DNA of 42,459 nt, from positions 1-42,459 of IMG/VR virus record IMGVR_UViG_3300031566_000116; one strand, 5' to 3'. Of this stretch, positions 683 through 24,098 are shown piece by piece. Numbering within the stretch: the first letter of the stretch is position 1; each line of letters starts with the position of its first letter. The notes beneath the pieces are model-generated. The model searched no databases and was not told the DNA's origin. It worked only from the letters and a program-made list of their open reading frames with translations. A program made the position numbers and the translations under genes. Source of the stretch: a virus.

Positions 683-788
683 TAGACTTCCAACCCTCCA
701 CAAGTACCTTAGCGGAAACAAAAAGGAATAAAGCGCAATACCTAGCGCGTTTCAAAGGTATAATAAATATTTTTAAATATCAAAATTA

Positions 789-1973: not shown

Positions 1974-3593
1974 TTAATTTTTATCTGTGTTTTGCAATAT
2001 TGCACTTATTTTAGAATTAAACCAAGCGTCTCGCATTATTTCTAATTTAGATCTGTCTTTGATTAAATCAGCTTGAGTCAATGTTTCCCACCAATCAGTA
2101 AACATTCCTTTCTTTTGCGCCTCTAACACTCCATAAACCCTAGATACAAGCTCTATGTCATAGTGTACATACGGCTCCAAATCTTTCTTCATTAACTCAG
2201 TCCTAAGCGTTTGAGGGTCTGATTTATATTTAGATGTTAGATATTCGGTTAGTTTTCTATCTCTAATCGTTATGGGGTCTTTTTTCTCGTTAGATGTTTG
2301 GTATTCCGAAAGTAGGTACTCAGGAGGCTGGATTATGTAATTTCTGCCATAACTGATAACCGCTATTTTATCAGCTTTGCTTTTAGTTGGAAATAAGAAA
2401 TTTGCTATCCATTCTGTAAACGCCTTTTCGTGCGACTCCCCGACGTTAGACCAAGCATTCAAACGGGTTATCATCGGCTGCGTGTTTAGGATTACGCTCA
2501 TAGCTGTCTGATCCTTAGCTTCACTCTCTCGCGTTCCCCACATAACCTCAAACATATCATCAAAATCAGTCTTGGCGCCTTTCATGTATTGATCCCAAAT
2601 TTCTAGATCTGGAGATATAAAACCAGCAAAATTTGCCGGTAACGTTACTGGATTTTCAGAATTGAGATCTATTGGTATAATTATCTCATCTGTAACATCT
2701 TTATCTAAAATAGTGCCTCGTCCTCCACAATCGGGGCAGTCAGCTACGCCTATTTTCTTAGTTCCTCTACATGATGGGCACAGAATCTTAGGTCTGTAAG
2801 GTGTTGAAAATCCATTTAAAAACTTAAATATTGTCAATATAGACCTATCGCTAAGGAACTCTTTTTCAGACTCGATAATATTATCGATAGGTGCCAATCT
2901 GTATTCTTCGCCTATCTTAATTTTATCGGAACATATTCTAGCTGGCACAGCCCCAAATGGGTTTACATTAGTATTTTCAATATCTAACGAAAAAGAATCG
3001 CCCACTTGTATTACGGTGTAATCTTTTTCATCATCAACAACACGCCAATGCTTCTCGGCTGTTCCTACTTTTGTTTTAGGCTCGAATATAACATATTCAA
3101 CATTCATACCATTAGCGGCATAATCTCTAATACTACATACACTCTTATACGTCGGATAAACATTATCATCCAACCACTCCAACATAATTAATCCAGACGG
3201 ATCCGCGTTATAAAGATCTTTAGCCCAATAAGTTTGTAGCCATTGCTCTAAAGATAAACCGCCTCTAACGTTTGATATTTTCCTTATCAAATCAGCCCGC
3301 TGAGTATCGCTCACATTGTATTGTTTACCTCCTCCTGTGGCTGAATAGACATTGTTTACAGGCTCTAATATTTTAGCGTTAATGTCCTTTATAGATCTCG
3401 CATACTTTTTTCTAGCTAAGGCCTTATTGTCAGATTCAATGTGCTGTATTTGAAGCAATAGATCTTTAAACTCGTCACCGAATAACAAAGCTTTCATGTC
3501 TTTGTGGTAATCACGCGCTTTAAGTATCCATTTTGGCACCTGTTGAACTTTCTTTATTGCTTCGAATATATCTTGCTCTGTATTAAATACCAT
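1974..3593 (-). CDS. portal protein candidate
   Basis: 539 aa, immediately downstream of terL in the packaging/head operon. Size and position are typical of portals, but no portal-specific motif was recognised. Contains CPSCRGTKK-x6-CPDCGGRG. Confidence 0.6.
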   Translation of the reverse strand: MVFNTEQDIFEAIKKVQQVPKWILKARDYHKDMKALLFGDEFKDLLLQIQHIESDNKALARKKYARSIKDINAKILEPVNNVYSATGGGKQYNVSDTQRADLIRKISNVRGGLSLEQWLQTYWAKDLYNADPSGLIMLEWLDDNVYPTYKSVCSIRDYAANGMNVEYVIFEPKTKVGTAEKHWRVVDDEKDYTVIQVGDSFSLDIENTNVNPFGAVPARICSDKIKIGEEYRLAPIDNIIESEKEFLSDRSILTIFKFLNGFSTPYRPKILCPSCRGTKKIGVADCPDCGGRGTILDKDVTDEIIIPIDLNSENPVTLPANFAGFISPDLEIWDQYMKGAKTDFDDMFEVMWGTRESEAKDQTAMSVILNTQPMITRLNAWSNVGESHEKAFTEWIANFLFPTKSKADKIAVISYGRNYIIQPPEYLLSEYQTSNEKKDPITIRDRKLTEYLTSKYKSDPQTLRTELMKKDLEPYVHYDIELVSRVYGVLEAQKKGMFTDWWETLTQADLIKDRSKLEIMRDAWFNSKISAILQNTDKN

Positions 3594-3621: not shown

Positions 3622-4902
3622 TTACGAATAAATAATAGGCGGTGCCGATATTGGTCTATTGTATGCTATATGCGCATATCTATCAGCATCCCACATATGG
3701 TTAAATTTATCGATCGGCTGATTTATTGCAATATTGTTTATAAGCTTCATTTTGTAGTTTTCTTGTTCCTTTTTCGCTTGTAGATATAAGTGATTTTTAA
3801 CAATATGTATCTTCTTCTTTTTCATTGAAGTAAGCCAATACATGACGCTTTTAGTTTTATTTACTTTGCTTATGTTCCACCCCTTTAAGTATAACTCTTT
3901 GACCATCTCAACCGTTCCTCTGTTCTCGCCAGTATATTTATCAGAGCTGTCGGCGGTTGTGGGAATCTTAATATCTATATTGTTAGTAATTGCAAAATTA
4001 TGAATTAAATCTGCGTTTTCGGTTGGTTCGTATAATAATAATTCAATCCAGATATTAAACTCGTCCTCTCCATGTTTAACAAGTGCGGTTGGATCCGTCG
4101 TGAATCCAAAATCCATACCATAACTAAATCCTATGTCTGGAAACTTATCTACCCATGTAATATTTTGAAATATCAATCCCTCTGGGGATGATCTTATTCC
4201 TTCACCATATACTTGCCATCTGTATTTATCTGCGGTGCCATTCCTTATATTAATTAAATTAGGTCTTCTTTTTTTTTCATCTTGAATATTCAAGTCTTCT
4301 AATAACCAAGGACAGTAACCTTCAATAGTGTTTATTACAGATTGTTCTAAATGCTTATTGTTTTTGTATGTGGAATGTGTGAAATGTACATTAGGCTGCC
4401 CTTCTAAGTCGAAGCACCAATGTTGCGTATATTTTGGATTCCAATCGTAAACTAATAATTTTCTACAACGCATTGCAATACCATCAACTTTTTCTTTATT
4501 TTGGTTTTCTAAAGCCTCATTTATAAATACAATGTCAGACGGATAACCTTCGCTACTATCGTCAAGCCCTCTAAAAAATACATCATTTCCATACAGGTTG
4601 TAATATGGTTTTTGTGGATTCTTATAGTTTTCATCATCCCATATCCCCATCTTTTTTAAGCATTTCTGAAATTCTTTAAAGGTGAAATCTTTACAATTTG
4701 TTAACGTTTCCCTAAGTATGTAAATCTCATTATTTGCACCTTCATTATTTTCGCAGTACATTACTAGCAAGTGATAGAAATCCCAAGTTTTAGAACTTCT
4801 ACTGCTACCCTCATTGCATATTGTTACTTTATCAGGTTTATTTCTATTTTTAAAGAAAATACTCACCATTTCATAAAATAGTGGGTTGGGATTGAACACC
4901 AT
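3622..4902 (-). CDS. terL: terminase large subunit
   Basis: 426 aa with Walker A-like GSSRSSKT and Walker B-like DIVFINEA. The C-terminal RNase H-like nuclease signatures are GMDFGFTTDPTA and WDADRY. Confidence 0.85.
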   Translation of the reverse strand: MVFNPNPLFYEMVSIFFKNRNKPDKVTICNEGSSRSSKTWDFYHLLVMYCENNEGANNEIYILRETLTNCKDFTFKEFQKCLKKMGIWDDENYKNPQKPYYNLYGNDVFFRGLDDSSEGYPSDIVFINEALENQNKEKVDGIAMRCRKLLVYDWNPKYTQHWCFDLEGQPNVHFTHSTYKNNKHLEQSVINTIEGYCPWLLEDLNIQDEKKRRPNLINIRNGTADKYRWQVYGEGIRSSPEGLIFQNITWVDKFPDIGFSYGMDFGFTTDPTALVKHGEDEFNIWIELLLYEPTENADLIHNFAITNNIDIKIPTTADSSDKYTGENRGTVEMVKELYLKGWNISKVNKTKSVMYWLTSMKKKKIHIVKNHLYLQAKKEQENYKMKLINNIAINQPIDKFNHMWDADRYAHIAYNRPISAPPIIYS

Positions 4903-5339
4903 TACTCTTCTTTTAGATTGTACTCCTTACTATCGATAATAAGGTTTATTTTCGGATTTGATTTTATCTCTTTATCCTTACTGGTAACATCTAACTTCTC
5001 TCCAAACATTTTGGGATAGTATTTAGCCGCCTTCCATTTGTAAGTTTGTATAATAACATTAGCGGTCGAAGCATCAATATCACCATTCTTTAATTCGTCG
5101 ATAGTTTCGTCTATTTGATTATCTACACCATCGGCTTTATCTTGAATGGAATTTACATACAGGTTGCAAACAAATTGATTATCACGCTTCCATCTACACC
5201 AAGTTGAAAAGTCTGGAAACTCATCTTTACATTGCAACGCCTTTTTAATATTCATACCATTGGCAACTAAATCACATATCTCAATAGCTAATTCATCTGT
5301 GTATATAGATGCGTTTTTATTTCCTACTTTAGCTCCCAT
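4902..5339 (-). CDS. terS: terminase small subunit
   Basis: 145 aa directly upstream of terL, with a 1-nt overlap. It has an N-terminal HTH-like TDELAIEICDLVANGMNIKKAL and a C-terminal QTYKWKAAKYYPKMFGEK typical of a widespread small-terminase family. Confidence 0.7.
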   Translation of the reverse strand: MGAKVGNKNASIYTDELAIEICDLVANGMNIKKALQCKDEFPDFSTWCRWKRDNQFVCNLYVNSIQDKADGVDNQIDETIDELKNGDIDASTANVIIQTYKWKAAKYYPKMFGEKLDVTSKDKEIKSNPKINLIIDSKEYNLKEE

Positions 5340-6176: not shown

Positions 6177-6353
6177 TTAAAATGGAGACATCTTCGCTTT
6201 TACAACTTCAATATGTTTATATCGTTCTTCGCTAAATTTATCTTTGTTATCTTCAAGTGTTTGCTCGTAATAACCTATCTTGAAAGTCATTACCATATTT
6301 TGCCATAAAAGAATTACAGCTACTGTTCCTAATAAAATCGCTAATGTTGTCAT
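6177..6353 (-). CDS. small membrane protein (58 aa, below the ORF-track cutoff)
   Basis: Hand translation gives MTTLAILLGTVAVILLWQNMVMTFKIGYYEQTLEDNKDKFSEERYKHIEVVKAKMSPF, with one N-terminal TM helix. The ORF is flanked by inverted AATTGTTATAGCCA(A/G)TTAA copies at 6162-6180 and 6365-6383. Confidence 0.5.
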   Translation of the reverse strand: MTTLAILLGTVAVILLWQNMVMTFKIGYYEQTLEDNKDKFSEERYKHIEVVKAKMSPF

Positions 6354-6369
6354 TTTAAAATAATTAACT

Positions 6370-6466
6370 GGCTATAACAATTTATAAAAATAATAGCGCA
6401 TATAGCCTTTGCGGTATTATTCATCTTATGTGGTTGCGCTACTATTCTTATAATAACGTTATAGGG
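6370..6466 (-). repeat. structured intergenic element E1 (box A CTATAAC / box B GTTATAG)
   Basis: Minus strand: CCCTATAAC-GTTAT-TATAAGAATAGTAGCGCA...TGCGCTATTATTTTTATA-AATT-GTTATAGCC. The 18-bp upper stem has 2 G:T pairs. The TAA in box A is the stop of gene 6459..6722. Confidence 0.8.
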
Positions 6467-6722
6467 CATTTAAAATATATACCCTTTCGGCTACCACATT
6501 GCTGTTGTAGTACTTGTATTCAACCTTTCTAAGTTCAAATTCATACTTACCGCCATTAATCAAGCCTTCAGGGTTTATTACCTCTATCTCATGCGTGCCT
6601 GTGCAATAATCATAACCACCACAGCAACACGTTTCAGGGTGGCAGTTACATCGCTCCTTGTAGCTGTAGTTGTATTTTAAGTAGTATTTATTATCCTTTA
6701 TTGTTGCTGTTCCTACTCTCAT
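6459..6722 (-). CDS. cysteine-rich small protein (87 aa)
   Basis: Track ORF. The segment CNCHPETCCCGGYDYCTGTH carries 6 Cys and 2 His within 20 residues. Confidence 0.65.
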   Translation of the reverse strand: MRVGTATIKDNKYYLKYNYSYKERCNCHPETCCCGGYDYCTGTHEIEVINPEGLINGGKYEFELRKVEYKYYNSNVVAERVYILNAL

Positions 6723-6736
6723 AATAAAAACGCCCT

Positions 6737-6862
6737 ATAACACTAAATATAAAAAAGCTGGGTGTTACGGGTCTTTTAAACCAGCATGCTACTAAGTTAG
6801 TTTTTGTGGTCTGCGAAAAGTTGTAGCTACTAATCCCAGCCATTTCATATTATTTCCGTTAT
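6737..6862 (-). repeat. structured intergenic element E2
   Basis: Minus strand: GCATAAC-GGAAAT-AATATGAAATGGCTGGG...CCCAGCTTTTTTATATT-TAGT-GTTAT. The 17-bp stem has 2 G:T pairs and 1 T:T mismatch. The TAA in box A is the stop of gene 6859..7071. TTTTT follows box B. Confidence 0.75.
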
Positions 6863-7071
6863 GCACCATAATCAGACAACAGGCAGTTGTAATCATTTAG
6901 TGCAGCATCAAGCAATGAATAATCTTCTACTTCTGTTGGGTCGCATTCATAACTGCCTGTTTTTAGATAATCAATAGTGATAAAATGGTCGTGTGTATCT
7001 ACGCCAAGTTTATCTAATCGTTCCTTTTCTGCTTCTAGTGCGGTGATAAGTTTTAATTTTCTTTCGTCCAT
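6859..7071 (-). CDS. hypothetical acidic protein (70 aa)
   Basis: Internal ATG at 7071 (MDERKLKLITALEAEKERL...) chosen. The longer track ORF to 7176 would run through element E3. Confidence 0.55.
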   Translation of the reverse strand: MDERKLKLITALEAEKERLDKLGVDTHDHFITIDYLKTGSYECDPTEVEDYSLLDAALNDYNCLLSDYGA

Positions 7072-7089
7072 TTTGTTAAATATTACGGT

Positions 7090-7187
7090 GCATAACACGG
7101 TATATATGTTATACGCCAATGAAGTGCTGTACTTAATTTTAAAGTTTGTGGTTAGGCGTACAACACATATACCCAACCGTTATGTGC
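7090..7187 (-). repeat. structured intergenic element E3
   Basis: Minus strand: CATAAC-GGTTG-GGTATATGTGTTGTACGCC...GGCGTATAACATATATACC-GT-GTTATG. The 19-bp stem has 2 G:T pairs. The element starts 3 nt after the stop of gene 7191..7394. Confidence 0.8.
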
Positions 7188-7190
7188 CAT

Positions 7191-7394
7191 TTACAATTCT
7201 GGATAATCAGACCTGTCCATTTTCATAGCACTTTTAAAACTATCTGCAAGTTCTTTGTTGCATTTTTCACATAAGTTACAGTCTGTAATTTTAACAAACT
7301 CTACCTTTTTATTGCTGCCACAAACGGCACATAACAATGTGTCATACGCCATTGGCTTAGTAGCTTTTGCAAGTGTTTCAAATAAATCATCCAT
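7191..7394 (-). CDS. small zinc-ribbon protein (67 aa)
   Basis: Track ORF with the Cys pairs CAVC...CNLCEKC. Confidence 0.6.
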   Translation of the reverse strand: MDDLFETLAKATKPMAYDTLLCAVCGSNKKVEFVKITDCNLCEKCNKELADSFKSAMKMDRSDYPEL

Positions 7395-7455
7395 CGGTGT
7401 TATCTTTAAGTTTTGTACTATTAATTATCACGCCAACAGTCGCATACACTCAACG

Positions 7456-7698
7456 TTAGGCTTCATTTGCTATCGCACCACAATTCCAATGTTCCCAATT
7501 TGTACATTTTCCTGTTTCTCTATTTACTCTACGCATCCACAGTTCAGTCACAGGCATTATTGCCGTGCCATTGGGAACTACACACTCCTTTTCTGTTTTA
7601 GTTTCTTTAAACTCATTTGAGCAGTTTGAACATACTGTATAATCACCGAAGTAGTAGAATTTATTCTCACCACATTCACATTTAATACATCCTTCCAT
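7456..7698 (-). CDS. small zinc-ribbon protein (80 aa)
   Basis: Track ORF with CIKCEC...CSNC. Its stop TAA lies inside GCCTAAC-GTTGA, a box A half-element. Confidence 0.6.
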   Translation of the reverse strand: MEGCIKCECGENKFYYFGDYTVCSNCSNEFKETKTEKECVVPNGTAIMPVTELWMRRVNRETGKCTNWEHWNCGAIANEA

Positions 7699-7734
7699 CT
7701 TTTTAGTTATTTATCCCACCACACAAAAACGAAA

Positions 7735-7852
7735 GCCTAACAAAGTATAAATGCCATTGTATCGGCTCATTTATGTAGTTAAGTGGTTATTATTAATATT
7801 TGTTTTTCAATTCAATTTCAGTTCTCAACGGCACTTATACAAACCGTTAGGC
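7735..7852 (-). repeat. structured intergenic element E4
   Basis: Minus strand: GCCTAAC-GGTTT-GTATAAGTGCC...GGCATTTATAC-TTT-GTTAGGC. It has a perfect 7-bp lower stem and an 11-bp upper stem with 1 G:T pair. It starts 1 nt after the stop of gene 7854..8081. Confidence 0.85.
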
Positions 7853-7853
7853 A

Positions 7854-8081
7854 CTATTGCTTTTGATCTAAATAGTTATCTACACATTCATCGTTTGCTT
7901 GTGATGTCTTGTCGCTTTCTGAATAGTCCGCAAAAAGCAACAGTTCACTTCGTTGCCTAACATTGTATAAAATCAATAAAGATTCTATCAATTCATCTTT
8001 GCGCTTCCTTGAAAGCATAGTCTTGTCTACTAGTTCTGTTATTTCTTGTTTCATATCTTTACTGTTTTTATACTTGTCCAT
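7854..8081 (-). CDS. hypothetical protein (75 aa)
   Basis: Track ORF in the same-strand array. No motif recognised. Confidence 0.6.
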   Translation of the reverse strand: MDKYKNSKDMKQEITELVDKTMLSRKRKDELIESLLILYNVRQRSELLLFADYSESDKTSQANDECVDNYLDQKQ

Positions 8082-8098
8082 TGTAGTTCATAAAAATG

Positions 8099-8344
8099 CT
8101 ATTCTTTATGCCTACATACTTCTTTAGTGTCTAACACAACCTCTTCATATCTACAACTACCTGAGTGCTTACAGTCGCATTTTAACGCAACCACAACACG
8201 CTGTATAGGTAAATTATTAACTATACTCAGTGCTTCACTTACTTCTTTCCTGCTTTGTTCGGAGTGTTGCTCTCCACCGTTTACCATGCTACTCAATAGT
8301 GCAATGGTGCTACGTAATTTATTTTGTTCGTCTTTTGTAATCAT
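8099..8344 (-). CDS. hypothetical protein (81 aa)
   Basis: Track ORF with a C-terminal Cys cluster CDCKHSGSC...C. Confidence 0.6.
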   Translation of the reverse strand: MITKDEQNKLRSTIALLSSMVNGGEQHSEQSRKEVSEALSIVNNLPIQRVVVALKCDCKHSGSCRYEEVVLDTKEVCRHKE

Positions 8345-8402
8345 CTTTAGTTCTTTTTATCCGTTAATAATCAACCCATACAGCCATCCATTATGGTTCA
8401 TG

Positions 8403-8693
8403 CTAAGAACCGCTACGTTCAAGTTCATCAAACAATTGATTTGCCATATCAACAGATAATTTTGACAGATAAATGCCCCAATGTTTTAATCCTTGGTATT
8501 CATCTTTTGGTATTCCGATATAATCAGCAGCAGATTGAATGCTTGCATTATTGCCCTCTGCAATTATATTTGCTTTCATTATTTCTAAAGCAAAATGTTC
8601 TTTTTTTGTAAGTCCAAAATAAACATCATGCTGAATAGTTCCATCATGATTTGTGTAAGGAGCTGGATTTTTAGGTGTTTCTGAATTTTTCAT
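8403..8693 (-). CDS. hypothetical protein (96 aa)
   Basis: Track ORF. No motif recognised. Confidence 0.6.
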   Translation of the reverse strand: MKNSETPKNPAPYTNHDGTIQHDVYFGLTKKEHFALEIMKANIIAEGNNASIQSAADYIGIPKDEYQGLKHWGIYLSKLSVDMANQLFDELERSGS

Positions 8694-8743
8694 TTTGTTT
8701 CATATTTAATTGATTAATAATTACTTTAATAAAGCACGAAACC

Positions 8744-8871
8744 ATAACACACGGTATAAAACAAAGCGGTTTCAGTGCTATTTTTTGGGCTTTGTTTTCC
8801 GTTCAAACTTCGGTGGTTGTTGACAGTTCATCGCTCGCAATCCGCTTCGATTTTATACCGCCAAACGTTAG
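8744..8871 (-). repeat. structured intergenic element E5
   Basis: Minus strand: GCTAAC-GTTTGG-CGGTATAAAATCGAAGCGG...CCGCTTTGTTTTATACCG-TGT-GTTAT. The 18-bp stem has 1 G:T pair and 1 bulged T. The TAA in box A is the stop of gene 8868..9155. Confidence 0.75.
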
Positions 8872-9155
8872 CGAGAATGAGAGCGATTGTCCGCAAAATA
8901 TGGAGCATCATAAACATTCTTGCCAGTTAAATCAGTTATTTTCTCGAAGTGATTGTATGGTTTGGTAAAACAGCCACCTTTACATTTTACTGTCATTACT
9001 TTATCCCAACATTCCATCACCTGCAGAGCATCTTTTTGCTGTGCCTTTGAATATCCTTGTAATGTTGATACGATAAAATAATCACTCTCGCTAACATCAG
9101 CTATGTTTAAGCTGGGGGTTAGCGTAATTTTCAAGTCCTCAATCTGTTTTTTCAT
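8868..9155 (-). CDS. hypothetical protein (95 aa)
   Basis: Track ORF. No motif recognised. Confidence 0.6.
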   Translation of the reverse strand: MKKQIEDLKITLTPSLNIADVSESDYFIVSTLQGYSKAQQKDALQVMECWDKVMTVKCKGGCFTKPYNHFEKITDLTGKNVYDAPYFADNRSHSR

Positions 9156-9224
9156 TTTGTGTATTTTGATACGTTTGTAATTTTAAATCCCAGCCTAAAC
9201 ATAGCTGTAGCGTTAGCAACAAGC

Positions 9225-9470
9225 CTAAGCATCCTGCATATATTCCGTAAGTTTTTTAAGTAAATTATTTAGGTACTCAACACCTATAGCCTTTGCATCT
9301 TCCAGTTCGTATTCAACGCCAACCCAATCATTGTTTATCATTACATCATAGCTAGGTCGGTCTTTCCAACTTTTCCATTCTATTATCATTCTACCTATTG
9401 GCGTTTCTGCAATCACATGGTCATAAAAACTTACTCCCTCGGTTGCTTTTGTTGGCTCTGTCCATTTCAT
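9225..9470 (-). CDS. hypothetical protein (81 aa)
   Basis: Track ORF. No motif recognised. Confidence 0.6.
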   Translation of the reverse strand: MKWTEPTKATEGVSFYDHVIAETPIGRMIIEWKSWKDRPSYDVMINNDWVGVEYELEDAKAIGVEYLNNLLKKLTEYMQDA

Positions 9471-9495
9471 AATATCTCTAGTTTAAAGGCCAGTT

Positions 9496-9589
9496 GCTAA
9501 CAATATGTATAGCAAAAAGCCGTAATTAATATTTGTTCTTCGATTGGTTTTTTGGTGGTACGGCTTCATGCCATACATTTAACGTTAGC
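9496..9589 (-). repeat. structured intergenic element E6
   Basis: Minus strand: GCTAAC-GTTAA-ATGTATGGC-ATG-AAGCCGTA...TACGGCTT-TTT-GCTATACAT-ATT-GTTAGC. It has a 6-bp lower stem and 9-bp plus 8-bp upper stems with 1 G:T pair. Confidence 0.8.
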
Positions 9590-9599
9590 GATCAGTTTG

Positions 9600-9881
9600 C
9601 TAATCGACTTTACGACCGCAAAAATCACATATATAGAAGTTACCAATGTTATTGCCGTTTTCATCGGTGCAATGTTCGCAAACCGAAACGCTAACATTTT
9701 GGATAGTTAATCTGCTTTTAGGTTCTAGCAGAATGCCAGTGCCCGCCTTGTAAGCAAGTTCAGCCATCTTATTTAGTGCTTCCATTAGCTCTTCGCTAGG
9801 TTTAAAGTTCTCTCCTCTGAATGTTGCGTGTCCGTGTTTTAATGGAATATGCGTGTGTCCTTCTGTTTCGTAAGTTGCCAT
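9600..9881 (-). CDS. small His-rich / zinc-ribbon protein (93 aa)
   Basis: Track ORF with N-terminal GHTHIPLKHGH and C-terminal CEHC...CDFC. Confidence 0.6.
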   Translation of the reverse strand: MATYETEGHTHIPLKHGHATFRGENFKPSEELMEALNKMAELAYKAGTGILLEPKSRLTIQNVSVSVCEHCTDENGNNIGNFYICDFCGRKVD

Positions 9882-9972
9882 CGCTGTTTTGTATTTTGAA
9901 GTTAGTATTTTCTAGTAGTTTGGCTATTTTAGTAGGGGCAGCCTACCCATCCAAGTTATCCATTGTGCGTAA

Positions 9973-10227
9973 TTATACGCCGCCCTTTTCAAAGCTATCA
10001 GGTTTAGCTTGTTTCTCACAAGCTGATTCCATCATTGCTAAATATTTATCAATGACATTTAAGTCTGGATTTTCTTTTTCAATTTCCTCTTTAGCATTTA
10101 TATGTAATAAGTGCATATAGCTTTTATGCCCTTTATATCCAAATACTAAACTAATTGTATGTTGCATTTCAAAGGCTGCAACTGTTATTGTAAAAAACTT
10201 TCTGAGTGCATCTATTTTTTTGTCCAT
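9973..10227 (-). CDS. hypothetical protein (84 aa)
   Basis: ATG at 10227 (MDKKIDALRKFF...) chosen. The track start at 10251 is a TTG codon inside the degenerate element E8. Confidence 0.55.
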   Translation of the reverse strand: MDKKIDALRKFFTITVAAFEMQHTISLVFGYKGHKSYMHLLHINAKEEIEKENPDLNVIDKYLAMMESACEKQAKPDSFEKGGV

Positions 10228-10234
10228 AAGAATA

Positions 10235-10331
10235 ATAACTACGCACAACAACAGCTAAAAAACATAGCCAATAAGGCAGTAAGTAATTTGAAGCGTTCTA
10301 CATGGCTACGCTTCATAGCCCAAAGTTATAG
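10235..10331 (-). repeat. degenerate structured intergenic element E8
   Basis: Minus strand: CTATAAC-TTTGG-GCTATGAAGCGTAGCC...GGCTATGTTTTTTAGC-(14 nt)-GTTAT. The 16-bp stem has 3 G:T pairs and 1 T:T mismatch. An alternative inner hairpin TGAAGCGT/ACGCTTCA is possible. Confidence 0.5.
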
Positions 10332-10394
10332 TTAACCCTATCGGGTCGCTATCGCTTAATAATAACACGGTACATAAACAATAAATAAAATTGC

Positions 10395-10568
10395 CTACGC
10401 ACGGGAAAATCCGTTATTCTTAAACATGCGGTCAACTAATCTAATCCAGCGCTTACGTATTATTTCTTCATATTCGCCAACTCCAAGCATCGCTTCCATT
10501 TCATCACGCATGCAAACTATAGCGTTTAGTTGAGCTTCAGTAATTTCTAATTTTATCTTTTTTGCCAT
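10395..10568 (-). CDS. hypothetical protein (57 aa, below the ORF-track cutoff)
   Basis: Hand translation gives MAKKIKLEITEAQLNAIVCMRDEMEAMLGVGEYEEIIRKRWIRLVDRMFKNNGFSRA. It fills an otherwise 500-nt gap in the same-strand array. Confidence 0.5.
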   Translation of the reverse strand: MAKKIKLEITEAQLNAIVCMRDEMEAMLGVGEYEEIIRKRWIRLVDRMFKNNGFSRA

Positions 10569-10619
10569 CGCTTAAAAATTTTATTTACAGTTCATGTACC
10601 CATTCGTTAATCTTATATT

Positions 10620-10942: not shown

Positions 10943-11114
10943 TTTTTAATATTTTATTTAAGCTGTTGTTTGCTTTTTTCTCTGTATCTGTTCTATCCCA
11001 AACTGTTCCTAAAAAGTCTATGACGAAATAAGTAGATTTACCATTGAACTCTATTTTAAAACCTTTTTCTTCTCTTAGCGTTTTCATAACTTTTACTTTT
11101 TTAGTACACTTCAA
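10929..11114 (-). CDS. hypothetical protein (61 aa)
   Basis: Track ORF. No motif recognised. Confidence 0.5.
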   Translation of the reverse strand: MKCTKKVKVMKTLREEKGFKIEFNGKSTYFVIDFLGTVWDRTDTEKKANNSLNKILKNGGL

Positions 11115-11158
11115 AGATACACCTTTTAAATTAAAAACAAAACAATTTTAAAATATAT

Positions 11159-11515
11159 TTACATTTTATTTATTCGTTCGTCGTTTTCGGTCACAATTAA
11201 CACCACTTTATTTTCTACTCCCTTCTTAGATGATAGCTTTACGCTTAATACAATGCTATAAGCGTCATCCTCAAACAAACAATCTTCAATCAGCTTATAC
11301 ATAGCCGCGCAATTTGACGCGTCCAATGGTCTTGTTTTAAACTCAAAATTAACTTCGACGTCGTACGCTCCTGATTTACTAAATGGCTTATATTTATTCA
11401 GCATTAATTTGTAGGTGTTTTTAATGTTATTTCTTACAGTCCAATGGGCTCCAGCATACCATTTATTTAATGATACTTTTGGTAGATTTTTAATTATTAT
11501 TTCGTGTCTTATCAT
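11159..11515 (-). CDS. rusA: RusA-like Holliday junction resolvase
   Basis: 118 aa. The N-terminal LPKVSLNKWYAGAHWTVRNNIK and central RPLDASNCAAMYKLIEDCLFEDD follow the RusA pattern (SxN..Y....R and D.DN.......D.L...DD). Confidence 0.6.
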   Translation of the reverse strand: MIRHEIIIKNLPKVSLNKWYAGAHWTVRNNIKNTYKLMLNKYKPFSKSGAYDVEVNFEFKTRPLDASNCAAMYKLIEDCLFEDDAYSIVLSVKLSSKKGVENKVVLIVTENDERINKM

Positions 11516-12399: not shown

Positions 12400-13398
12400 T
12401 TAAAATAATTGAGGCGTTCTTAATATTTCTAAACATCTCTTATTGCTCATATTTACATACTTCTGCTCTACATCAAAACCTATAAAGTTTCTACCTTCTT
12501 TTGCACTCATAGCGCACTCTGTACCACTTCCAGCAAAAGGAACAACTACAAGGTCATTCTTTCGGCTGCAAGTCAAAATTAAGGCTCTTGTAAGGGATTC
12601 AGGCTTTACCGTTTCGTGGTCGTATTTTGCGCCAGTTTTTACAGCTTCATTACTATAATTTAAAACCTCTTGTAAGTTAAATACATTGTTAAATGGTCGC
12701 CTTAGTTCTTCGTATTCCTTTCTAAGTTCTTCGTATTCCTTTCTAAGTTCTTCGTATGGTTTATTTAAGTATTCAAATTTTAAATACTCCCGAATTGTAT
12801 CATATTGTTCTTCTGTAATTACATTGTCACCATTTAGCCAATTAGAAACACAACCAGTTAACCCACCTGTTCGGCTTGGAAATAATTTAGCAATTTCTTT
12901 ATTAGTAATATTTGCGTTCTTAACCTCAACTTTCAAATACTTACTAAATGGGTTTTTTGGTTTTAAAAATTGTTCAAAAATTAATTCTCCTCCTGTTTTT
13001 TGTCCTCTTTGCTCATACATTAAAATCCTTTCGGTGCAAGGTGCAAAACTTCTTAATCCTTCGCTTTCTTCCAATCCCATAAAAGAGCCTTTATTCCAAA
13101 CTAAGCTATTTATAAGGTTAAAGTATTTATCAAGTATAATCTGAACGTATGCAATATTTTTAGATGAACCATACCAAAATAAAGTACCATTATCAGAAAG
13201 CACACGCTTGCACTCAATAGCCCACTTTTCAACATCTACTAAAAATTCATCTCTACTATTCCAAATAAAATCAAAGTCGCCTTTTACTCCAAAGTAAGGG
13301 CTATCTGCAATAATTAAATTACCTATTTTATCAGGCAGGTTATTATTTAGCCAATTGTCGCAATAAACCTTATTAAATTCCCTCATTTCTCTCATCAT
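12400..13398 (-). CDS. DNA methyltransferase (N6-adenine or N4-cytosine, beta class)
   Basis: 332 aa. A motif IV-like IIADSPYF precedes the motif I VVPFAGSGTE, the beta-class order of the N-4/N-6 methylase family. Carries an in-frame EELRKEY tandem repeat. Confidence 0.85.
   Translation of the reverse strand: MMREMREFNKVYCDNWLNNNLPDKIGNLIIADSPYFGVKGDFDFIWNSRDEFLVDVEKWAIECKRVLSDNGTLFWYGSSKNIAYVQIILDKYFNLINSLVWNKGSFMGLEESEGLRSFAPCTERILMYEQRGQKTGGELIFEQFLKPKNPFSKYLKVEVKNANITNKEIAKLFPSRTGGLTGCVSNWLNGDNVITEEQYDTIREYLKFEYLNKPYEELRKEYEELRKEYEELRRPFNNVFNLQEVLNYSNEAVKTGAKYDHETVKPESLTRALILTCSRKNDLVVVPFAGSGTECAMSAKEGRNFIGFDVEQKYVNMSNKRCLEILRTPQLF
12702..12759. repeat. 21-bp tandem repeat (about 2.8 copies) inside the methyltransferase gene
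   Basis: T(T/A)AGTTCTTCGTATTCCTTTC is repeated head to tail. It encodes PYEELRKEYEELRKEYEELRRP. Confidence 0.9.
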
Positions 13399-13531: not shown

Positions 13532-15352
13532 TTAAAATGGTGCTTCTCGTGGTGTCATATCAAAAGCTGCTTCTACTTCTTTGAATGTCGGTTCTGAGTA
13601 AGTTATTAACCCTTGTTTTTGCTCATCTTTTAGCCAGTAACTATTATCCCAATCACCACTAAACTCACCTATTTGGCTATCTGCGTCACCTATTATTTTT
13701 GTATATCTTCCGTTGTTAGTGTTCCACATGAAAACCGCGTTGGCTTGATTCCTACCTAAGTTCTGAAACTTAACTTTCATCACTCTAACGCTCACAGTAT
13801 TTCTATCAAAGTCTCTATGTACACACAAACCGTGATAACTCATATCATACCACTCACCACCGCCTTTAATACTGTAAAAATCAGGCTCAGGCATTTTGCC
13901 TTTATCTTTTATTTGTTTAACTGGATGAGCTACCACAATAACAAGCACATCATACTTTTTACAAAACACGTCTATTTCGTTAAGATAGTCATTTGTGTAT
14001 TGGTTCACATCCGACCGCTTTGATTCTTTCAGATGAATTTTATTAAACGGGTCTAATACTAAACATTTAATCCCTTTGCGCTTTACAAGTTCGGCTGCTT
14101 TTGCCAAAACCTCCTTTAAACTATAACCATTTTCAAAATTAATATGGTAAAAATTATCATTTACCGTAGATTCAACTTTTAGCCATTTTAAAGAATCTAA
14201 TTCGATTTGCGTTTCTGGCCTATATCCTGCATACTTCCTGCAAATTTTATCAATATGCAAAAACTCTGGCTTATTCTCAGGTGAACAGTAAGCCGTTTTC
14301 CATCCGTATTTTAAATTGTACCCAATGCACATTTGGTCTACAAAATCAGACTTCCCATGTGTGGGTATCCCCGTTACAACAATAAACTGCTTTGTGTATG
14401 TTGAAAATATATCATCGAAACCGTCTAATCCAATTTTGAAACCAGACTTTGAGCCATTCAAATAAAAATCCCTTAATTCGTTTCTAACATCGTTTAGAGT
14501 TACTACATTATTTAAAGGGCATTCTTTAGCTTCTAGTATGCGTTTTTTTACACTCTCTACACCTTCTTGGCATAATACCTCATTAAAATCTTTATAAGGG
14601 CTTAAATCGACCGTAAAGCAGTTTTCAGCACCTAGCCGCCTGATTAGTTCTTTTTGCACATTCTGCCCCGCCTCATCATCATCAAGGGCAAGTATGATTC
14701 TTTTCTTATTTTCAAAATATTCAATGCTATTATCTAACCAATCTAAATTTACACCGTGAACCGTTGAACCATTTGGAGAACTAATTACATTATGATGCCC
14801 CGATTCAATAACGCTTAAAACATCCATTTCACCTTCTACGATTATCATTTCGTCAGAAGTTCTGACCGCGTCTAAGTTGTAAGGAATTTTCTCAGCGTCC
14901 TTAACCATCTTAAAGTTCTTGCGCCCATCTCTGTATTTAACATTGATTAGCTCATCATCCCTAAAATAATTAAACTGAATTGTATTTTCTTCTTTCCCTG
15001 TTTGGGGCATCCACTCTTTACCTTCTCCAATTTTAAGCCTACGTAGTGTGAATTGTGTTATTTTGCGCCCCTCAAACCACTTAACTAGATTGTTTGATAG
15101 TGTGGTATTGTTTTGAAAAGATGGTCGCTTATATGGTTTAGTTTCCTTCTTTTTTTTGTAGGTGTGCATTTGTATTGTCTCGCCGCAATGGTGGCAATGT
15201 CCTAAACCTGTTTCCCAATTCAATGATAAACATTTATCGCGTGCCTTTTTTCTTTCAGCGGAACATAAAGGGCACGTGCTCGTCTTAACATTTATTGGCA
15301 GGTCGTATTGGTTGTATTTATCAACCTCGAAACCGTTTATAAATTCGCTCAT
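13532..15352 (-). CDS. bifunctional primase-helicase (T7 gp4-like)
   Basis: 606 aa. The N-terminal zinc ribbon is CPLC...CHHC, the TOPRIM motifs are IIVEGEMDVLS and ALDDDEAGQ, and the C-terminal P-loop helicase Walker A is TGIPTHGKS. Confidence 0.85.
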   Translation of the reverse strand: MSEFINGFEVDKYNQYDLPINVKTSTCPLCSAERKKARDKCLSLNWETGLGHCHHCGETIQMHTYKKKKETKPYKRPSFQNNTTLSNNLVKWFEGRKITQFTLRRLKIGEGKEWMPQTGKEENTIQFNYFRDDELINVKYRDGRKNFKMVKDAEKIPYNLDAVRTSDEMIIVEGEMDVLSVIESGHHNVISSPNGSTVHGVNLDWLDNSIEYFENKKRIILALDDDEAGQNVQKELIRRLGAENCFTVDLSPYKDFNEVLCQEGVESVKKRILEAKECPLNNVVTLNDVRNELRDFYLNGSKSGFKIGLDGFDDIFSTYTKQFIVVTGIPTHGKSDFVDQMCIGYNLKYGWKTAYCSPENKPEFLHIDKICRKYAGYRPETQIELDSLKWLKVESTVNDNFYHINFENGYSLKEVLAKAAELVKRKGIKCLVLDPFNKIHLKESKRSDVNQYTNDYLNEIDVFCKKYDVLVIVVAHPVKQIKDKGKMPEPDFYSIKGGGEWYDMSYHGLCVHRDFDRNTVSVRVMKVKFQNLGRNQANAVFMWNTNNGRYTKIIGDADSQIGEFSGDWDNSYWLKDEQKQGLITYSEPTFKEVEAAFDMTPREAPF

Positions 15353-16435: not shown

Positions 16436-17068
16436 TTAGAAAAGTTTTAGTTGTCGTTTGTAATAATCAAAGGCAGCCAATCCGCTTTTAAAATAGTCCT
16501 CGTCTATTTCGCAAATGTCTAAATCAAAGCCCTCCATATCGCAAGCAATGGCATGTGTGTGGCTTCCTCCGTGGGTGTCTAGTATTTTCATTCCTTCGCT
16601 TGCGTATTTTTGCAGTGTCCACCTGTACAGATCGATAGGTTTTTGAGTTGGATGTATTCTATCTTTCTGCATTGCAGTTTTATTGTAAATCTTTGCTCCA
16701 TTTTTAAAAGAAGTCCAAGCCATTTCGCACATCGCAAAGCTCATATCTTCAGCGATTTTCTTATCCCATACAATATAGCATTTACAATTGCCTAACCTAT
16801 CTAAAAAGTAATTACCTCCCCATACAATCATATTCTTACTAACCCTCTTTAGCTCTTCAAAGTATTCGTTTGTTGGGGTGCTTTTATCCCAAACCTTTAT
16901 TTCGTATTTTTCTTTGAAATGAGTGCCGCTATTATTAATGTCAATTCCATAAGGCGGGTCAACTATTGCCAAATCGTAGTAGTTATCTGGCTTCGTTTTC
17001 ATAAACTCGATATTATCACAGTTGTAAAAACAAATGCCACCTCGTTGCTCTTTTTTAAATTCGCTCAT
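16436..17068 (-). CDS. DNA N6-adenine methyltransferase (beta class)
   Basis: 210 aa. Motif IV is IVDPPYGI, followed by the conserved HPTQKP and a degenerate motif I ILDTHGGSHT. Confidence 0.8.
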   Translation of the reverse strand: MSEFKKEQRGGICFYNCDNIEFMKTKPDNYYDLAIVDPPYGIDINNSGTHFKEKYEIKVWDKSTPTNEYFEELKRVSKNMIVWGGNYFLDRLGNCKCYIVWDKKIAEDMSFAMCEMAWTSFKNGAKIYNKTAMQKDRIHPTQKPIDLYRWTLQKYASEGMKILDTHGGSHTHAIACDMEGFDLDICEIDEDYFKSGLAAFDYYKRQLKLF

Positions 17069-19248: not shown

Positions 19249-19905
19249 CTATTTATTAGTTTCAAATGATACTTCTTTAGGGTCTTTGAACTCATTGCCT
19301 TTATTAATTATGGCAGTTTTAAACTTCTCATCTTTTTGAAGATGTACGTTCCCTTTCCATATAGCTGCAACCTCATCAGCACTTTTGCAATTGATAATCA
19401 AAGGCAATAAGCTTACTAAATTTGTCAGCGGCTGTGTTGGTGTTTTAATGTCATCAGAATGAGTTGTATCTGCATCGTCTATTTTGCCAACAGGGGTTAA
19501 AAAAGTATACAGCAAACAGTTTTTAAGTGCGTATGTTGTTGCTTTGCCAGCTCCTTTATCTTGAGAATCTACGCCATGCCCATAACCAGCTAACTCAATA
19601 CTTTCTCCAGATGTATGTAAAAGCAAGTATTTTGTTTTCACCTTTGTAAAAACACTTTGTTTTGTTTTCACTCCGTAACTACTTGACTCTTCCCATCTAT
19701 CAACTTGCGTTTGTTCCTCGATGTCTATCGGAACAATACACAATCCAGCATTTACTAAAGCATCATTGAACACTTCTTTTACGTCCATATCTTTAGTGCC
19801 ATTATACGATGAAGTGCCAGCGCCAACTTTGCTATTCTTTTCCATCCCCTTAACAGCTTTCATTACTTCTATAATTGCAGCCGCTATTTGTTTCTTTTCA
19901 CTCAT
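19249..19905 (-). CDS. erf: ERF-family single-strand annealing recombinase
   Basis: 218 aa. GHGVDSQDKGAGKATTYALKNCLLYTFLTPVGKIDDAD parallels the conserved ERF block (G.....A.SYA.KY.L...F.I.DD.D) of P22 Erf. Confidence 0.75.
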   Translation of the reverse strand: MSEKKQIAAAIIEVMKAVKGMEKNSKVGAGTSSYNGTKDMDVKEVFNDALVNAGLCIVPIDIEEQTQVDRWEESSSYGVKTKQSVFTKVKTKYLLLHTSGESIELAGYGHGVDSQDKGAGKATTYALKNCLLYTFLTPVGKIDDADTTHSDDIKTPTQPLTNLVSLLPLIINCKSADEVAAIWKGNVHLQKDEKFKTAIINKGNEFKDPKEVSFETNK

Positions 19906-20359: not shown

Positions 20360-20389
20360 CAAATCTAACCATTTAATTTTAATTACAAA
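20360..20389 (-). promoter_or_regulatory. Bacteroidota-type promoter for the long minus-strand unit (TTTG-N18-TAGATTTG)
   Basis: The minus strand reads TTTG (20389..20386) and TAGATTTG (20367..20360), 22 nt upstream of the ATG at 20337. It is part of an inverted copy of the module at 21458-21507. Confidence 0.6.
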
Positions 20390-20438: not shown

Positions 20439-20446
20439 TAGATTTG
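20439..20446 (+). promoter_or_regulatory. -7 box TAGATTTG of the plus-strand early promoter candidate
   Basis: This is the third TAGATTTGT box, in the divergent region and facing gene 20614. Its -33 element is poorly matched. Confidence 0.45.
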
Positions 20447-20469
20447 TGTCGAACTTAAAAACTAAGGAG

Positions 20470-20610
20470 ATGAAAGCAGAAAATGAAGTTAGAAAACCCA
20501 CAACGGTTTGTGTAAGATTAGTAGCACAACCACAAAAATTGATTAATTGTACAACGGCTATATGTGCTATTAATTTTACACTTTGTTATAGCCAGTTATT
20601 AAATAAATAA
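20470..20610 (+). CDS. possible leader ORF (46 aa)
   Basis: Hand translation gives MKAENEVRKPTTVCVRLVAQPQKLINCTTAICAINFTLCYSQLLNK. It lies between the plus-strand -7 box and gene 20614. Coding status is uncertain. Confidence 0.25.
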   Translation: MKAENEVRKPTTVCVRLVAQPQKLINCTTAICAINFTLCYSQLLNK

Positions 20611-20613: not shown

Positions 20614-20916
20614 ATGAACTTAGATAAATTAAAAGCACTGTGCAATAAATATACTGTAGAGGTTAGTTTTAATGGATTTAAACCATTTACACATAAGGTA
20701 ATTAATGCAGAGAAGATGCTCGAAGAAATACACACGACAACTGATGTTGATAAAAGCACGTTTATTGAAAATATAAACAAAGGTAATTTTATGACACCTG
20801 AGTATGAAAGTATCTTCAAATCCATTAAAACGGTTGGAATGTTCCGAACTAAAGGAGACGATGCGCTAAATGGTGCAAAAGCTTACATTGAATGTAGTCG
20901 CCTTAATTGGCTATAA
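20614..20916 (+). CDS. hypothetical protein (100 aa)
   Basis: Track ORF and first plus-strand gene. It is flanked by inverted GTTATAGCCA / TGGCTATAAC copies, and its stop TAA lies in box A of element E7. Confidence 0.7.
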   Translation: MNLDKLKALCNKYTVEVSFNGFKPFTHKVINAEKMLEEIHTTTDVDKSTFIENINKGNFMTPEYESIFKSIKTVGMFRTKGDDALNGAKAYIECSRLNWL

Positions 20917-24036: not shown

Positions 24037-24054
24037 CAATTTACTAAATAAAAA

Positions 24055-24079: not shown

Positions 24080-24098
24080 TTTAATTTTTAAATGAAGT

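Follow-up and report, generated by a model that had tools for sequence, protein, structure and literature searches.

What separates the small genes of the array in IMG/VR virus record IMGVR_UViG_3300031566_000116, a phage genome of about 42 kb that was analysed here at its full length of 42,459 nucleotides (henceforth, the window)? The array of small open reading frames (ORFs) occupies 4.9-12.4 kb, between the replication genes and the terminase. Its ORFs are separated by structured elements for which the original prediction, made from the window sequence, offered three comparisons: the RNase III processing sites of phage T7, the promoter-stem-loop (PeSL) cassettes of T4-type phages, and the attC sites of integrons. 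The elements belong to a widespread family with a conserved structure, covarying stems and a marked bias of folding to one strand; in related loci, they are associated with a gene for a tyrosine recombinase, and gene content breaks at their first box, TAAC. On this evidence, the elements probably act as attC-like sites of recombination, marking the limits of gene cassettes in an analogue of the integron that is carried by phages.

Structured elements of the window fold on the gene-sense strand

The window contains 11 intact and two decayed elements, each on the sense strand of the genes, and the two copies in the plus-strand module are likewise co-oriented with the genes around them. A strict scan (TAACG...TGTTA plus arms of at least 12 bp) yielded 10 matches in the window, compared to a mean of 0.05 per genome in 40 dinucleotide-preserving shuffles. 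A covariance model built on 36 family members (R1) finds every window copy on the gene-sense strand, with scores 3-4 times higher for the sense than for the antisense strand (102 vs. 26, 70 vs. 16, and 58 vs. 16 bits). All eight copies listed in the original prediction are present, within 1-5 nt of their predicted places, but the list was incomplete, lacking 7332-7458, 9092-9215, 10363-10609, 20501-20588 and a remnant at about 8345-8393. When folding of the eight was compared to that of dinucleotide shuffles, seven had z-scores of -2.9 to -6.4, and the copy at 8744-8871, whose arms pair, scored z = -1.4 overall. The shuffled controls thus fold less well, the family is widely conserved, and, in relatives, gene content breaks at the boxes.

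Anatomy, covariation and strand bias

The anatomy of the elements was refined on 30, then 144, and then 244 elements from many contigs. The outer 5-bp closing helix, TAACG/TGTTA, is invariant (30 of 30 and 144 of 144 elements) and includes a conserved G.T pair; boxes A and B pair as had been predicted, but the conserved boxes (TAACG and TGTTA, with the G.T closing pair) are longer than those originally described. Positions equivalent to RYYY and RRRY in the attC criterion RYYYAAC...GTTRRRY show no conservation, and a full fit is seen in some copies only (GCCTAAC/GTTAGGC). The asymmetric internal loop that had been described does interrupt the stem, but is mostly a bulge of 3-4 nt in the 5' strand (consensus gTTg) with nothing opposite (189 of 243 elements), and later bulges of 1-2 nt are found in the 5' arm in 60 cases vs. 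7 in the 3' arm. Neither a conserved extrahelical G or T, of the kind that sets the choice of strand in attC sites, nor the layout of R box, central spacer and L box was found in the 243 elements. The inner helix of 12-24 bp, for a total stem length of 17-29 bp, opens with (G)TATA/TATA(C), beyond which its sequence varies freely provided that it pairs; the loop is A-rich and unstructured, with a size of 34-190 nt. The elements fall into length classes of ~48-58, 85-95 and 120-133 nt, and a few are longer. None of the families in Rfam 15, which itself holds no attC family, matches the elements at either gathering or permissive thresholds.

Conservation extends beyond the helices. The flanks contain A-T-T-G at -8 to -5 (ATTGnnnn on the 5' side) and a G at +10, and box B is preceded by TATA at -10 to -7 and AT at -16/-15, in a fixed register that also includes T(-8). 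Among 144 independently ascertained elements, the information content is 1.83 bit for T(-7) and, before box B, 1.88 bit for A(-7) and 1.75 bit for T(-15).

Comparison of the arms shows compensatory double changes in 15 of the 18 inner-stem pairs. The fraction of paired cells is 95.3%, compared to 73% after shuffling and 38-54% after sliding, and the mean pairing score of an arm is 13.4 with its own partner vs. 5.0 with the arms of other elements. The proposal that architecture rather than sequence is conserved was accordingly right in that pairing persists while the arms vary, but the arms are also under sequence constraint and the flanks are conserved. Counted inside arms that were defined by Watson-Crick pairs only, the other pairs comprised 303 G.T and 42 T.G vs. 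28 C.A and 7 A.C, a ratio of about 10:1; this excess indicates selection on the folded gene-sense strand and not on the duplex. The outer flanks, although conserved, do not covary with their own partners (pairing of 0.46 for own vs. 0.42 for swapped partners) and, because the partner swap leaves pairing equal, they represent conserved sequence rather than a helix. By the same test, what had looked like a terminator-type arrangement, with 8 bp added to the lower stem and a T tract behind, was discarded. Roles of the A/C-rich loops as Rho/rut sites or in ribosome standby were also rejected, given that C exceeds G only in the window and in contig L018 and not in the larger sample.

The loops are not random in sequence. 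Five window loops (6375-6461, 7093-7182, 7738-7849, 8745-8870 and 9498-9587) have AACCAC in common, and, in an alignment of 36 elements of 85-91 nt (A3), many of the 34-nt loops have ..TTTCAAATTA.. in common. The same alignment contains three G.U pairs conserved at fixed stem positions (columns 17/105, 37/90, the latter in 34 of 36 elements, and 31/95). Such loop motifs and G.U pairs could serve accessory binding or strand choice.

Position of the elements relative to genes

Of 254 elements, 65 have the upstream stop codon in box A, as its TAA, and 210 have it no more than 30 nt away; in 40, the stop is at -12, in frame with the box A TAA. In the window, this TAA had been thought to terminate the upstream gene in five copies, whereas we found it to do so in four of the eight listed copies and in five of all 13, the stop otherwise lying 7-15 nt upstream. 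Downstream of short elements, the next ORF begins 13-65 nt past box B. In elements of 123-133 nt, the next ATG is located within the loop, at +57 to +81, in 86 of 134 cases, so that the 3' arm and box B are coding. At least five T occur in the 8 nt past the stem in 13 of 40 elements.

The homologue of window gene 8403-8693 at L062:2660-2730 (79% identity) directly follows the preceding gene, with no element between the two, so that elements are not obligatory between such genes.

Distribution of the family

The family is not restricted to the window. A megablast search of the window against INPHARED yielded no relative, and scans of IMG/VR and Joint Genome Institute (JGI) metagenomes based on TerL returned contigs that have only TerL in common with the window. 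Elements are nevertheless present in such IMG/VR contigs (L003, L005, L018 with 14 copies, and L024), as well as in Polaribacter phages P12002L and P12002S and Tenacibaculum phage JQ. With a search pattern of 20% sensitivity, at least 120 IMG/VR contigs carry the family; the 120 loci found through their elements contain 309 elements, arrayed at up to 13 per 6 kb, and no locus has elements on both strands. Two small ORFs of the window used as queries gave zero matches, and close homologues were found only for gene 8403-8693.

One member of the family has been noticed before. Qi et al. (2023; PMC9892861) applied IntegronFinder and HattCI to phage genomes and reported attC clusters that have no integron-integrase (CALINs) in virulent phages, including P12002L. 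Their HattCI-flagged P12002L_attC1 (TGCTAACGGCTACGGCTAAACGG...CCGTTTTAGCCATTGTTAGGC) is a compact member of the present family. That study described neither the element family nor a cognate enzyme, and phage attC sites have so far been interpreted as stray integron components (PMC9892861). Our literature search on 'attC-like' sites in phage found nothing relevant, and a search on integron-like cassette systems in bacteriophages found general integron papers only, in which the present system is not described.

P12002L (L029) also carries a 68-bp segment twice, at 29172-29239 and 37198-37265, each time directly after TAAC and identical to that of P12002S. This segment is the 'attC2' of Qi et al., which lies outside the present hairpin family and yet recombined with IntI1.

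A tyrosine recombinase adjoins the arrays of relatives

A tblastn search for a phage-encoded factor common to all the element-bearing loci found first was negative; a recombinase surfaced in the wider IMG/VR sample. When the larger ORFs were annotated at the ten loci with the biggest arrays, four encoded a tyrosine recombinase of 266-289 aa just downstream of the array. The protein contains Pfam domains PF00589 and PF13495. Its best NCBIfam match is XerA/'integron integrase' (172-206 bits, cutoff 220), followed by XerD, XerC and TIGR02249, the last in two stretches and below its cutoff; the best match in PDB is 4a8e (XerA), followed by 2a3v (IntI4). Judged by these profile and structure matches, the enzyme is a member of the Xer/IntI clade.

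Of the 120 contigs found through elements, 13 encode the recombinase, always on the strand of the elements and 240-1770 nt past the last of them. Contig L018 also encodes it (L243). We then reversed the ascertainment and retrieved 80 loci by the recombinase itself. Relative to the recombinase gene, 310 elements of these loci were on the same strand upstream, 3 were downstream, and the opposite strand had 0. Upstream sequence of at least 3 kb was available for 54 loci, 49 of which have an array; the loci without an array mostly encode recombinases of no more than 40% identity. As a control, we scanned 927 kb around the top bacterial and archaeal homologues (identity of up to 48%) and found two elements, both immediately upstream of the closest homologue with flanking sequence (46% identity). 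This control indicates that the false-positive rate of the scanner is negligible and that the pairing of the recombinase clade with the elements is specific and essentially viral. An origin of the loci in host genomes was rejected, since a scan of genome contigs gave only homologues of up to 48% identity and essentially no elements; the loci with the recombinase and the arrays also contain phage hallmark genes and DNA-modification cargo.

The window itself encodes no such enzyme (best tblastn E = 0.37), in agreement with the original prediction, and none is encoded by P12002L, P12002S or JQ. Because relatives encode the enzyme, the lack of an integrase in the window no longer counts against recombination.

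A more distant recombinase is present in Polaribacter phages Freya and Danklef. The ten Freya isolates (Freya_1-10, MT732463-MT732472), which form one species with genomes of 43,978-48,920 bp, differ by the presence or absence of blocks in a 4.1-kb region of small ORFs (L343:1-4160 and L344:1-70). This region ends at TAAC (..TTTTAATTGTTGCTAAC|ACCCCTATAAC..), ~47 nt upstream of the gene for a 37.5%-identical recombinase. R1 found no element in the Freya variable block, and any sites of this lineage would differ from those described here; the original Freya paper noted only an 'integrase, potential temperate lifestyle'. Freya may represent a second, cultured lineage of a similar system.

A primary site and changes of cassette content at TAAC

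Every gene for the recombinase has before it, at 60-110 nt from its ATG, a simple non-palindromic site, ..tAGyATTGyrnaTAAC|TAyyATATAT... The left part of this primary site (..ATTGnnnnTAAC|TAyyATATAT), ATTGnnnnTAAC, is held in common with the elements, in which it corresponds to the outer flank and TAAC, but the complementary half is lacking. The window has no such attI-like site, apart from one match at chance level inside an ORF.

Comparison of loci shows that cassette content changes at this point. Recombinase-plus-site units that are 99-100% identical are followed by different cassettes, with identity extending up to exactly TAAC, in L212/L213, L206/L207/L209, L225/L226 and L222/L223, and the same TAAC breakpoint separates the 91%-identical units of L232/L233 and L249/L251. 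In one case the difference amounts to a single unit: compared to L209, L207 has one extra unit, consisting of an 88-nt element and an ORF, between ..GGAGCATAA and C-TATCATATATC. The extra unit starts with C-GGTTGGGTGTATG, the beginning of the 88-nt element, continues through the ORF sequence, and ends with ..TTGTACATAA, which is what a circular cassette of element and gene would leave behind upon insertion at the primary site.

The extra cassette ends (L207:800-935) in a motif resembling a Bacteroidetes-type promoter, TTTGatatttaaaaatatttagTATCTTTG, followed by a conserved stretch of ~90 nt that is also found in L192, upstream of the primary site; a near-identical promoter-like motif is located at window 753-784. 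The extra cassette could carry a promoter or a small RNA.

Breakpoints at the boxes are also seen away from the primary site. The protein encoded by gene 8403-8693 is 94% identical in L054-L061, and the homology at the DNA level is limited to 8726-8391, that is, from ~19 nt past box B to the next box A, ..CCATAA. In L054, the homologue of this gene is preceded by a truncated copy of another window element. Two L018 elements are 82% identical from TAACGG on, their upstream genes being unrelated, and the blocks that differ between P12002L and P12002S break at box A; a 3-gene indel between these two phages is flanked by ~20-nt direct repeats composed of box A and the start of the arm. The attC-like cassette reading put forward in the original prediction is thereby supported, with an array, a recombinase and a primary site in relatives and content that changes exactly at TAAC.

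Interpretation

We propose that, on the folded strand, the recombinase contacts both the outer and the inner duplex, that it also binds the primary site, and that strand exchange would occur at or beside TAA|C, such that units comprising an element, the downstream ORF or ORFs, and ..TAA would be excised, inserted at the primary site and reshuffled. Comparison of the genomes suggests that the recombinase would catalyse these steps, that its substrate would be single-stranded, and that it could act in trans. The conserved outer flanks would not be expected to covary, because a crossover at AA|C of box A would make the outer duplex chimeric. Since the cassette ORFs point to the recombinase, the gene-sense strand corresponds to the bottom strand of attC, and the wobble bias would arise without involvement of RNA.

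With neither a recombinase nor a primary site, the window is in a CALIN-like state, its array being either inherited or serviced in trans by a co-infecting or resident relative. CALINs are defined by two or more attC sites within 4 kb, as called by the IntegronFinder covariance model, and no integrase in the vicinity; the window shows this pattern, with 11 intact sites (called by our own scanner and R1) at distances of 230-760 nt and no recombinase.

More generally, we favour, on balance, the existence of a distinct cassette-capture system of phages of Flavobacteriia/Bacteroidota that parallels the integron, with arrays lacking a recombinase serviced in trans and an accessory and anti-defence gene pool shared across virulent and temperate phages. 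Such a system would consist of a compact Xer-like recombinase without the IntI insertion, an attI-like site, and unidirectional arrays that reach 17 or more cassettes. Each cassette would be bounded on its 5' side by a folded-strand site (TAACG/TGTTA with a 5' bulge), the loop of which would often provide the next translation start. Arrays without a recombinase (window, P12002L/S) would be serviced in trans during co-infection, and the arrays would together form a pool from which virulent and temperate phages exchange accessory and anti-defence genes.

Several observations weigh against this interpretation. P12002L_attC1 was the sole failure among six phage attC sites assayed with class 1 IntI1 (PMC9892861), although IntI1 is a non-cognate enzyme for this site. 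The window, P12002L/S and JQ maintain intact elements without a recombinase, which hints at an extra role in cis or at supply of the enzyme in trans. The element and the downstream gene sometimes part company (window vs. L054, and the L018 pair), and the right-hand junctions vary (+2, +19 and ~+35 nt). Selection for intact stop codons and hairpins would likewise restrict surviving junctions to box A, and the evidence for recombination is throughout of a comparative-genomic kind. The recombinase lacks the IntI-specific insertion of ~48 aa (query 181-209 vs. 182-258 of the VchIntIA/IntI4 chain) and is colinear with XerA; given that, in addition, the sites lack conserved extrahelical bases, the single-strand mechanism of integrons is not simply transferable. 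The two absences belong together. The recombinase could primarily be a lysogeny integrase, with the array only an adjoining plastic region, and, should the contigs with a recombinase share ancestry, the synteny statistic would be inflated.

Alternative explanations

We also considered that the elements are intercistronic hairpins acting on expression at the RNA level, in which case the breakpoints at the boxes would be a by-product of conserved sequence and selection. Possible roles include leaky termination or attenuation, protection or processing of 3' ends, provision of an open loop for the next initiation region, and stop-codon coupling. The strand that folds is the transcribed sense strand, with wobble pairs tolerated, and the loops are A-rich and unstructured. 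The array has no internal promoter and must be read through, and intact elements persist in genomes that encode no recombinase. Stop codons in box A, ATG codons in loops and a T-rich tail in about a third of the copies are likewise compatible with such a role. However, neither terminators nor RNase III sites have any need of an invariant TAACG/TGTTA, of flanks that do not covary, or of TATA and AT in a fixed register, and the elements match no Rfam family. The window provides a reference for the appearance of a terminator, a canonical compact bidirectional one at 24052-24082 (AAAAGCCTTGCA...TGCAGGGCTTTTTT), where the plus-strand module and the structural genes converge, and the elements differ from it. 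A terminator scan of 4.9-12.5 kb found three sites vs. 3.9 expected, only one of which overlaps an element, and so does not single out the elements. Moreover, 10-17 terminators in series would silence the downstream genes, and, in copies that overlap an ORF, a terminator or cleavage site would sit within the gene. The association with the recombinase and the motif held in common with the primary site would also be left unexplained. For these reasons, we regard an exclusively RNA-level explanation as unlikely, although an RNA-level role may coexist with recombination.

The same considerations bear on the proposed analogy to T7 RNase III sites. Like these, the elements are intercistronic hairpins on the transcribed strand in which an asymmetric interruption separates a lower from an upper stem, and their total stem length of 17-29 bp would suffice for the interrupted double-stranded hairpin of about 20 bp that RNase III cleaves; unlike these, they have loops of 34-190 nt, invariant boxes and flanks, ORF starts inside, and an associated recombinase. 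The analogy found no support: processing sites are not characterised by sequence-specific boxes, by flanks that are conserved without covarying, or by a tie to a recombinase.

Modular shuffling by short-homology recombination, for instance through Erf-type annealing, across PeSL-like linkers and without a site-specific recombinase, appears improbable. PeSLs are composite promoter-terminators thought to recombine, homologously or site-specifically, via ~50-70 nt of conserved sequence, and the present elements are similar in being structured intergenic motifs beside small variable ORFs that mark the junctions of indels and replacements (PMC2839356, PMC4122927). In favour of such shuffling, an ERF-family protein (19249-19905) and a RusA-like resolvase are among the window's products, some comparisons show genes and elements assorting independently of each other, direct repeats of ~20 nt flank the 3-gene indel of P12002L/P12002S, and shuffling is also seen in genomes without the recombinase. 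However, the defining feature of PeSLs, an embedded early promoter, is absent: no Bacteroidetes-type promoter was found on the minus strand of the array at 9990-4900, or in or beside the elements at 4.9-9.99 kb, contrary to the PeSL analogy of the original prediction, and no -7 box was found in or beside elements except after the 20914 copy. The conserved blocks of ~5-13 nt are short for homologous exchange. Homology also leaves unexplained the strand-specific folding, the recombinase and primary site beside arrays in more than 60 contigs, and the clean insertion of a single unit at TAA|C beside the recombinase gene. The present elements hence differ from PeSLs in having no host-type promoter, in the conservation of structure over sequence, and in their tie to a tyrosine recombinase.

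A promoter function was examined separately and rejected. The Bacteroidetes -33 and -7 motifs were sought in the loops, in the 3' arm with box B, and on the antisense strand, with no consistent match, and box A with its spacer (TAACGTTTG) resembles TAnnTTTG but is out of register.

Finally, the elements could be selfish foldbacks akin to miniature inverted-repeat transposable elements (MITEs), with terminal inverted repeats (TAACR-N4-5-GTATA...), a TA target duplication, a transposase acting in trans and no function for the phage; this is very improbable because, despite ends like terminal inverted repeats, discrete size classes, and near-identical copies at unrelated positions with identity from exactly TAAC, no transposase is associated with the elements, the orientation is always that of the genes (mixed loci, 0/120 and 0/80), stop and start codons occupy fixed positions relative to the element, and the compensatory and wobble changes on one strand point to selection on the folded strand and not to recent transposition. 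No pairs of empty and filled sites with a target duplication were found in P12002L/S or in relatives of the window, and the flanks are inverted-complementary or unrelated rather than direct repeats, a TA...TA duplication being formally possible. An inverton reading was dismissed, as loop composition and orientation are uniform at every locus.

Individual elements and genomic context of the window

On the minus strand, the first element is an 87-nt attC-like element at 6375-6461 (19-bp stem with two G.U pairs, loop of 34 nt, R1 70 bits), the box A TAA of which is the stop codon of ORF 6459-6722. It is followed by one of 124 nt at 6738-6861 (R1 20.7 bits), which in the same manner terminates ORF 6859-7071, and by one of 90 nt at 7093-7182 (19-bp stem, R1 102 bits), a 3'-truncated homologue of which sits before another gene in contig L054. 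The newly found 127-nt element at 7332-7458 (R1 25.1 bits) supplies the stop codon of ORF 7456-7698 through its box A TAA, and its loop holds the ATG of ORF 7191-7394, so that its 3' arm and box B are coding. The 112-nt element at 7738-7849 has boxes GCCTAAC/GTTAGGC (R1 37.7 bits). A decayed remnant at approximately 8345-8393 retains only the 5' half (CATAAT GGATGG CTGTATGGG) and forms the 3' boundary of the cassette of gene 8403-8693, where the homology to L054 stops at ..CCATAA|.

Further along the array, the 126-nt element at 8745-8870 (R1 28.6 bits) contains in box A the stop codon of ORF 8868-9155, the ATG of which lies in the loop of another newly found element, of 124 nt, at 9092-9215 (19-bp stem, R1 31.5 bits). 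The 90-nt element at 9498-9587 has a 20-bp stem and a 34-nt loop (R1 61.2 bits). The copy at 10236-10331, rightly called degenerate in the original prediction (as 10235-10331), is a real but decayed member that has lost box B (R1 45.5 bits); its intact homologue is L054:1021-1136 (R1 68 bits). A large element of 247 nt at 10363-10609, also newly found, has a 24-bp stem that surrounds the entire ORF 10395-10568 (57 aa), and a compact hairpin at 10363-10416, which is weak, makes use of the same box B. Between the minus-strand elements (6177-10568), the cassette ORFs encode 57-96 aa each, and nearly all are ORFans.

On the plus strand, an 88-nt element at 20501-20588 has the box A variant CAAC (R1 58.1 bits vs. 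15.9 antisense); it is a paralogue of 6375-6461, is co-oriented with the plus-strand genes, and lies in the leader of ORF 20614-20916. The compact copy predicted at 20911-20968 is a genuine 54-nt element at 20914-20967 (R1 46.1 bits), co-oriented with its genes, and its box A TAA is the stop codon of the same ORF. The plus-strand operon opens with a -7 box, TAGATTTG (20439-20446), directly followed by the element at 20501-20588. A mechanically called ORF, 20446-20610, passes through this element, which has no upstream gene, an unusual situation in the family.

The remaining gene content is that of a phage, with genes for the portal (1974-3593), TerL (3622-4902) and TerS (4902-5339) on the minus strand. 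Among the replication and DNA-modification functions, also encoded on the minus strand, are a primase-helicase (13532-15352), a replication initiator, a RusA-like resolvase (11159-11515), an ERF annealing protein (19249-19905) and two DNA methylases (12400-13398 and 16436-17068). P12002L and phi10:1 have NinG/Rap; general recombination functions of this type could aid non-site-specific shuffling at element edges. Start codons in the window are not preceded by Shine-Dalgarno sequences, and Bacteroidetes-type promoters (TTTG-N17-23-TAnnTTTG) are located at operon starts, at 20360-20389(-), 21476-21505(+), 11112-11145(-) and 753-784(-). The top matches of the primase-helicase are to Cellulophaga, Riemerella, Tenacibaculum and Flavobacterium phages, all with no more than 45% identity. 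These matches, the lack of Shine-Dalgarno sequences and the type of promoter make it very probable that the host is a member of the Flavobacteriia.

The cassettes of relatives (arrays of L076, L095 and L100) include N6/N4 and C5 DNA methyltransferases and PAPS-reductase-like proteins, and the shuffled blocks of P12002L/S (L029/L030) are methyltransferase genes. This cargo looks like anti-restriction functions, unlike the nearly all-ORFan cassettes of the window.

Implications

Integrons have been regarded as bacterial and, recently, also archaeal devices, defined by IntI and its extra helix. If our interpretation is correct, a large group of marine phages has its own parallel cassette platform with a plain Xer-like recombinase, and folded-site cassette recombination arose or persisted without the IntI insertion, which bears on the evolution of IntI from Xer-type enzymes. 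It would also offer a mechanism for the assembly and exchange of hyperplastic small-ORF regions of phages, a long-standing puzzle, and would assign exact cassette boundaries to hundreds of ORFans, DNA methyltransferases and PAPS-reductase-like genes, which are probably anti-defence cargo. Surveys of the IntegronFinder type would overlook or mislabel such systems.

Comparison with known systems

The arrays resemble integrons in that there is approximately one small, promoterless, mostly ORFan gene per imperfect-palindromic site. The site conserves structure but tolerates changes in sequence, its invariant core is AAC/GTT (here TAAC/GTTA), one strand is favoured in folding, and the inverse core often contains a stop codon. 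One end of the array is occupied, in relatives, by a recombinase of the Xer/IntI clade together with a simple primary site, and variable cassettes are joined at the core to this conserved unit. When the map is reversed, it reads recombinase (<-), primary site (..G|TTA), and cassettes each ending in TAACA...CGTTA, which is the canonical integron layout. The strand that folds, TAACG...TGTTA, carries the signature of the attC bottom strand, the control oligonucleotides of aadA7 showing both strands. The top strand of the aadA 59-base element, which is the coding-sense one, is that with TAACA, and the canonical attC crossover is AA|C.

The differences from integrons concern both the sites and their arrangement. 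The cassette ORFs are reversed, reading toward a co-directional downstream recombinase. Compared to attC, the sites have no symmetric unpaired central spacer, longer inner helices (12-24 bp), and the additional conserved ATTG, TATA and AT motifs. An ORF often begins in the loop of the site, and the carrier is a phage of Flavobacteriia/Bacteroidota.

The second point of comparison is provided by Xer substrates. The outer arm ends in ..ATAA| beside a spacer of 6-8 nt, as do dif arms, although the resemblance in sequence of the present half-sites to dif is partial. In CTXphi, the folded hairpin of attP(+) is processed by plain Xer enzymes (PMC3091885), which makes similar chemistry on the folded sites described here plausible. 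Elsewhere, modules bounded by Xer-type sites, such as the integrative mobile elements exploiting Xer (IMEXs) and the pdif modules of Acinetobacter, shuffle without a dedicated integrase. The CTXphi precedent involves a plain Xer-type recombinase, without the extra helix of IntI, that acts on a hairpin formed by two inverted dif-like half-sites tens of nucleotides apart. The present system differs from CTXphi, IMEXs and pdif modules in that host XerCD is not implicated, a dedicated recombinase is encoded by phages, and each genome has many sites, arranged in a unidirectional array with a primary site.

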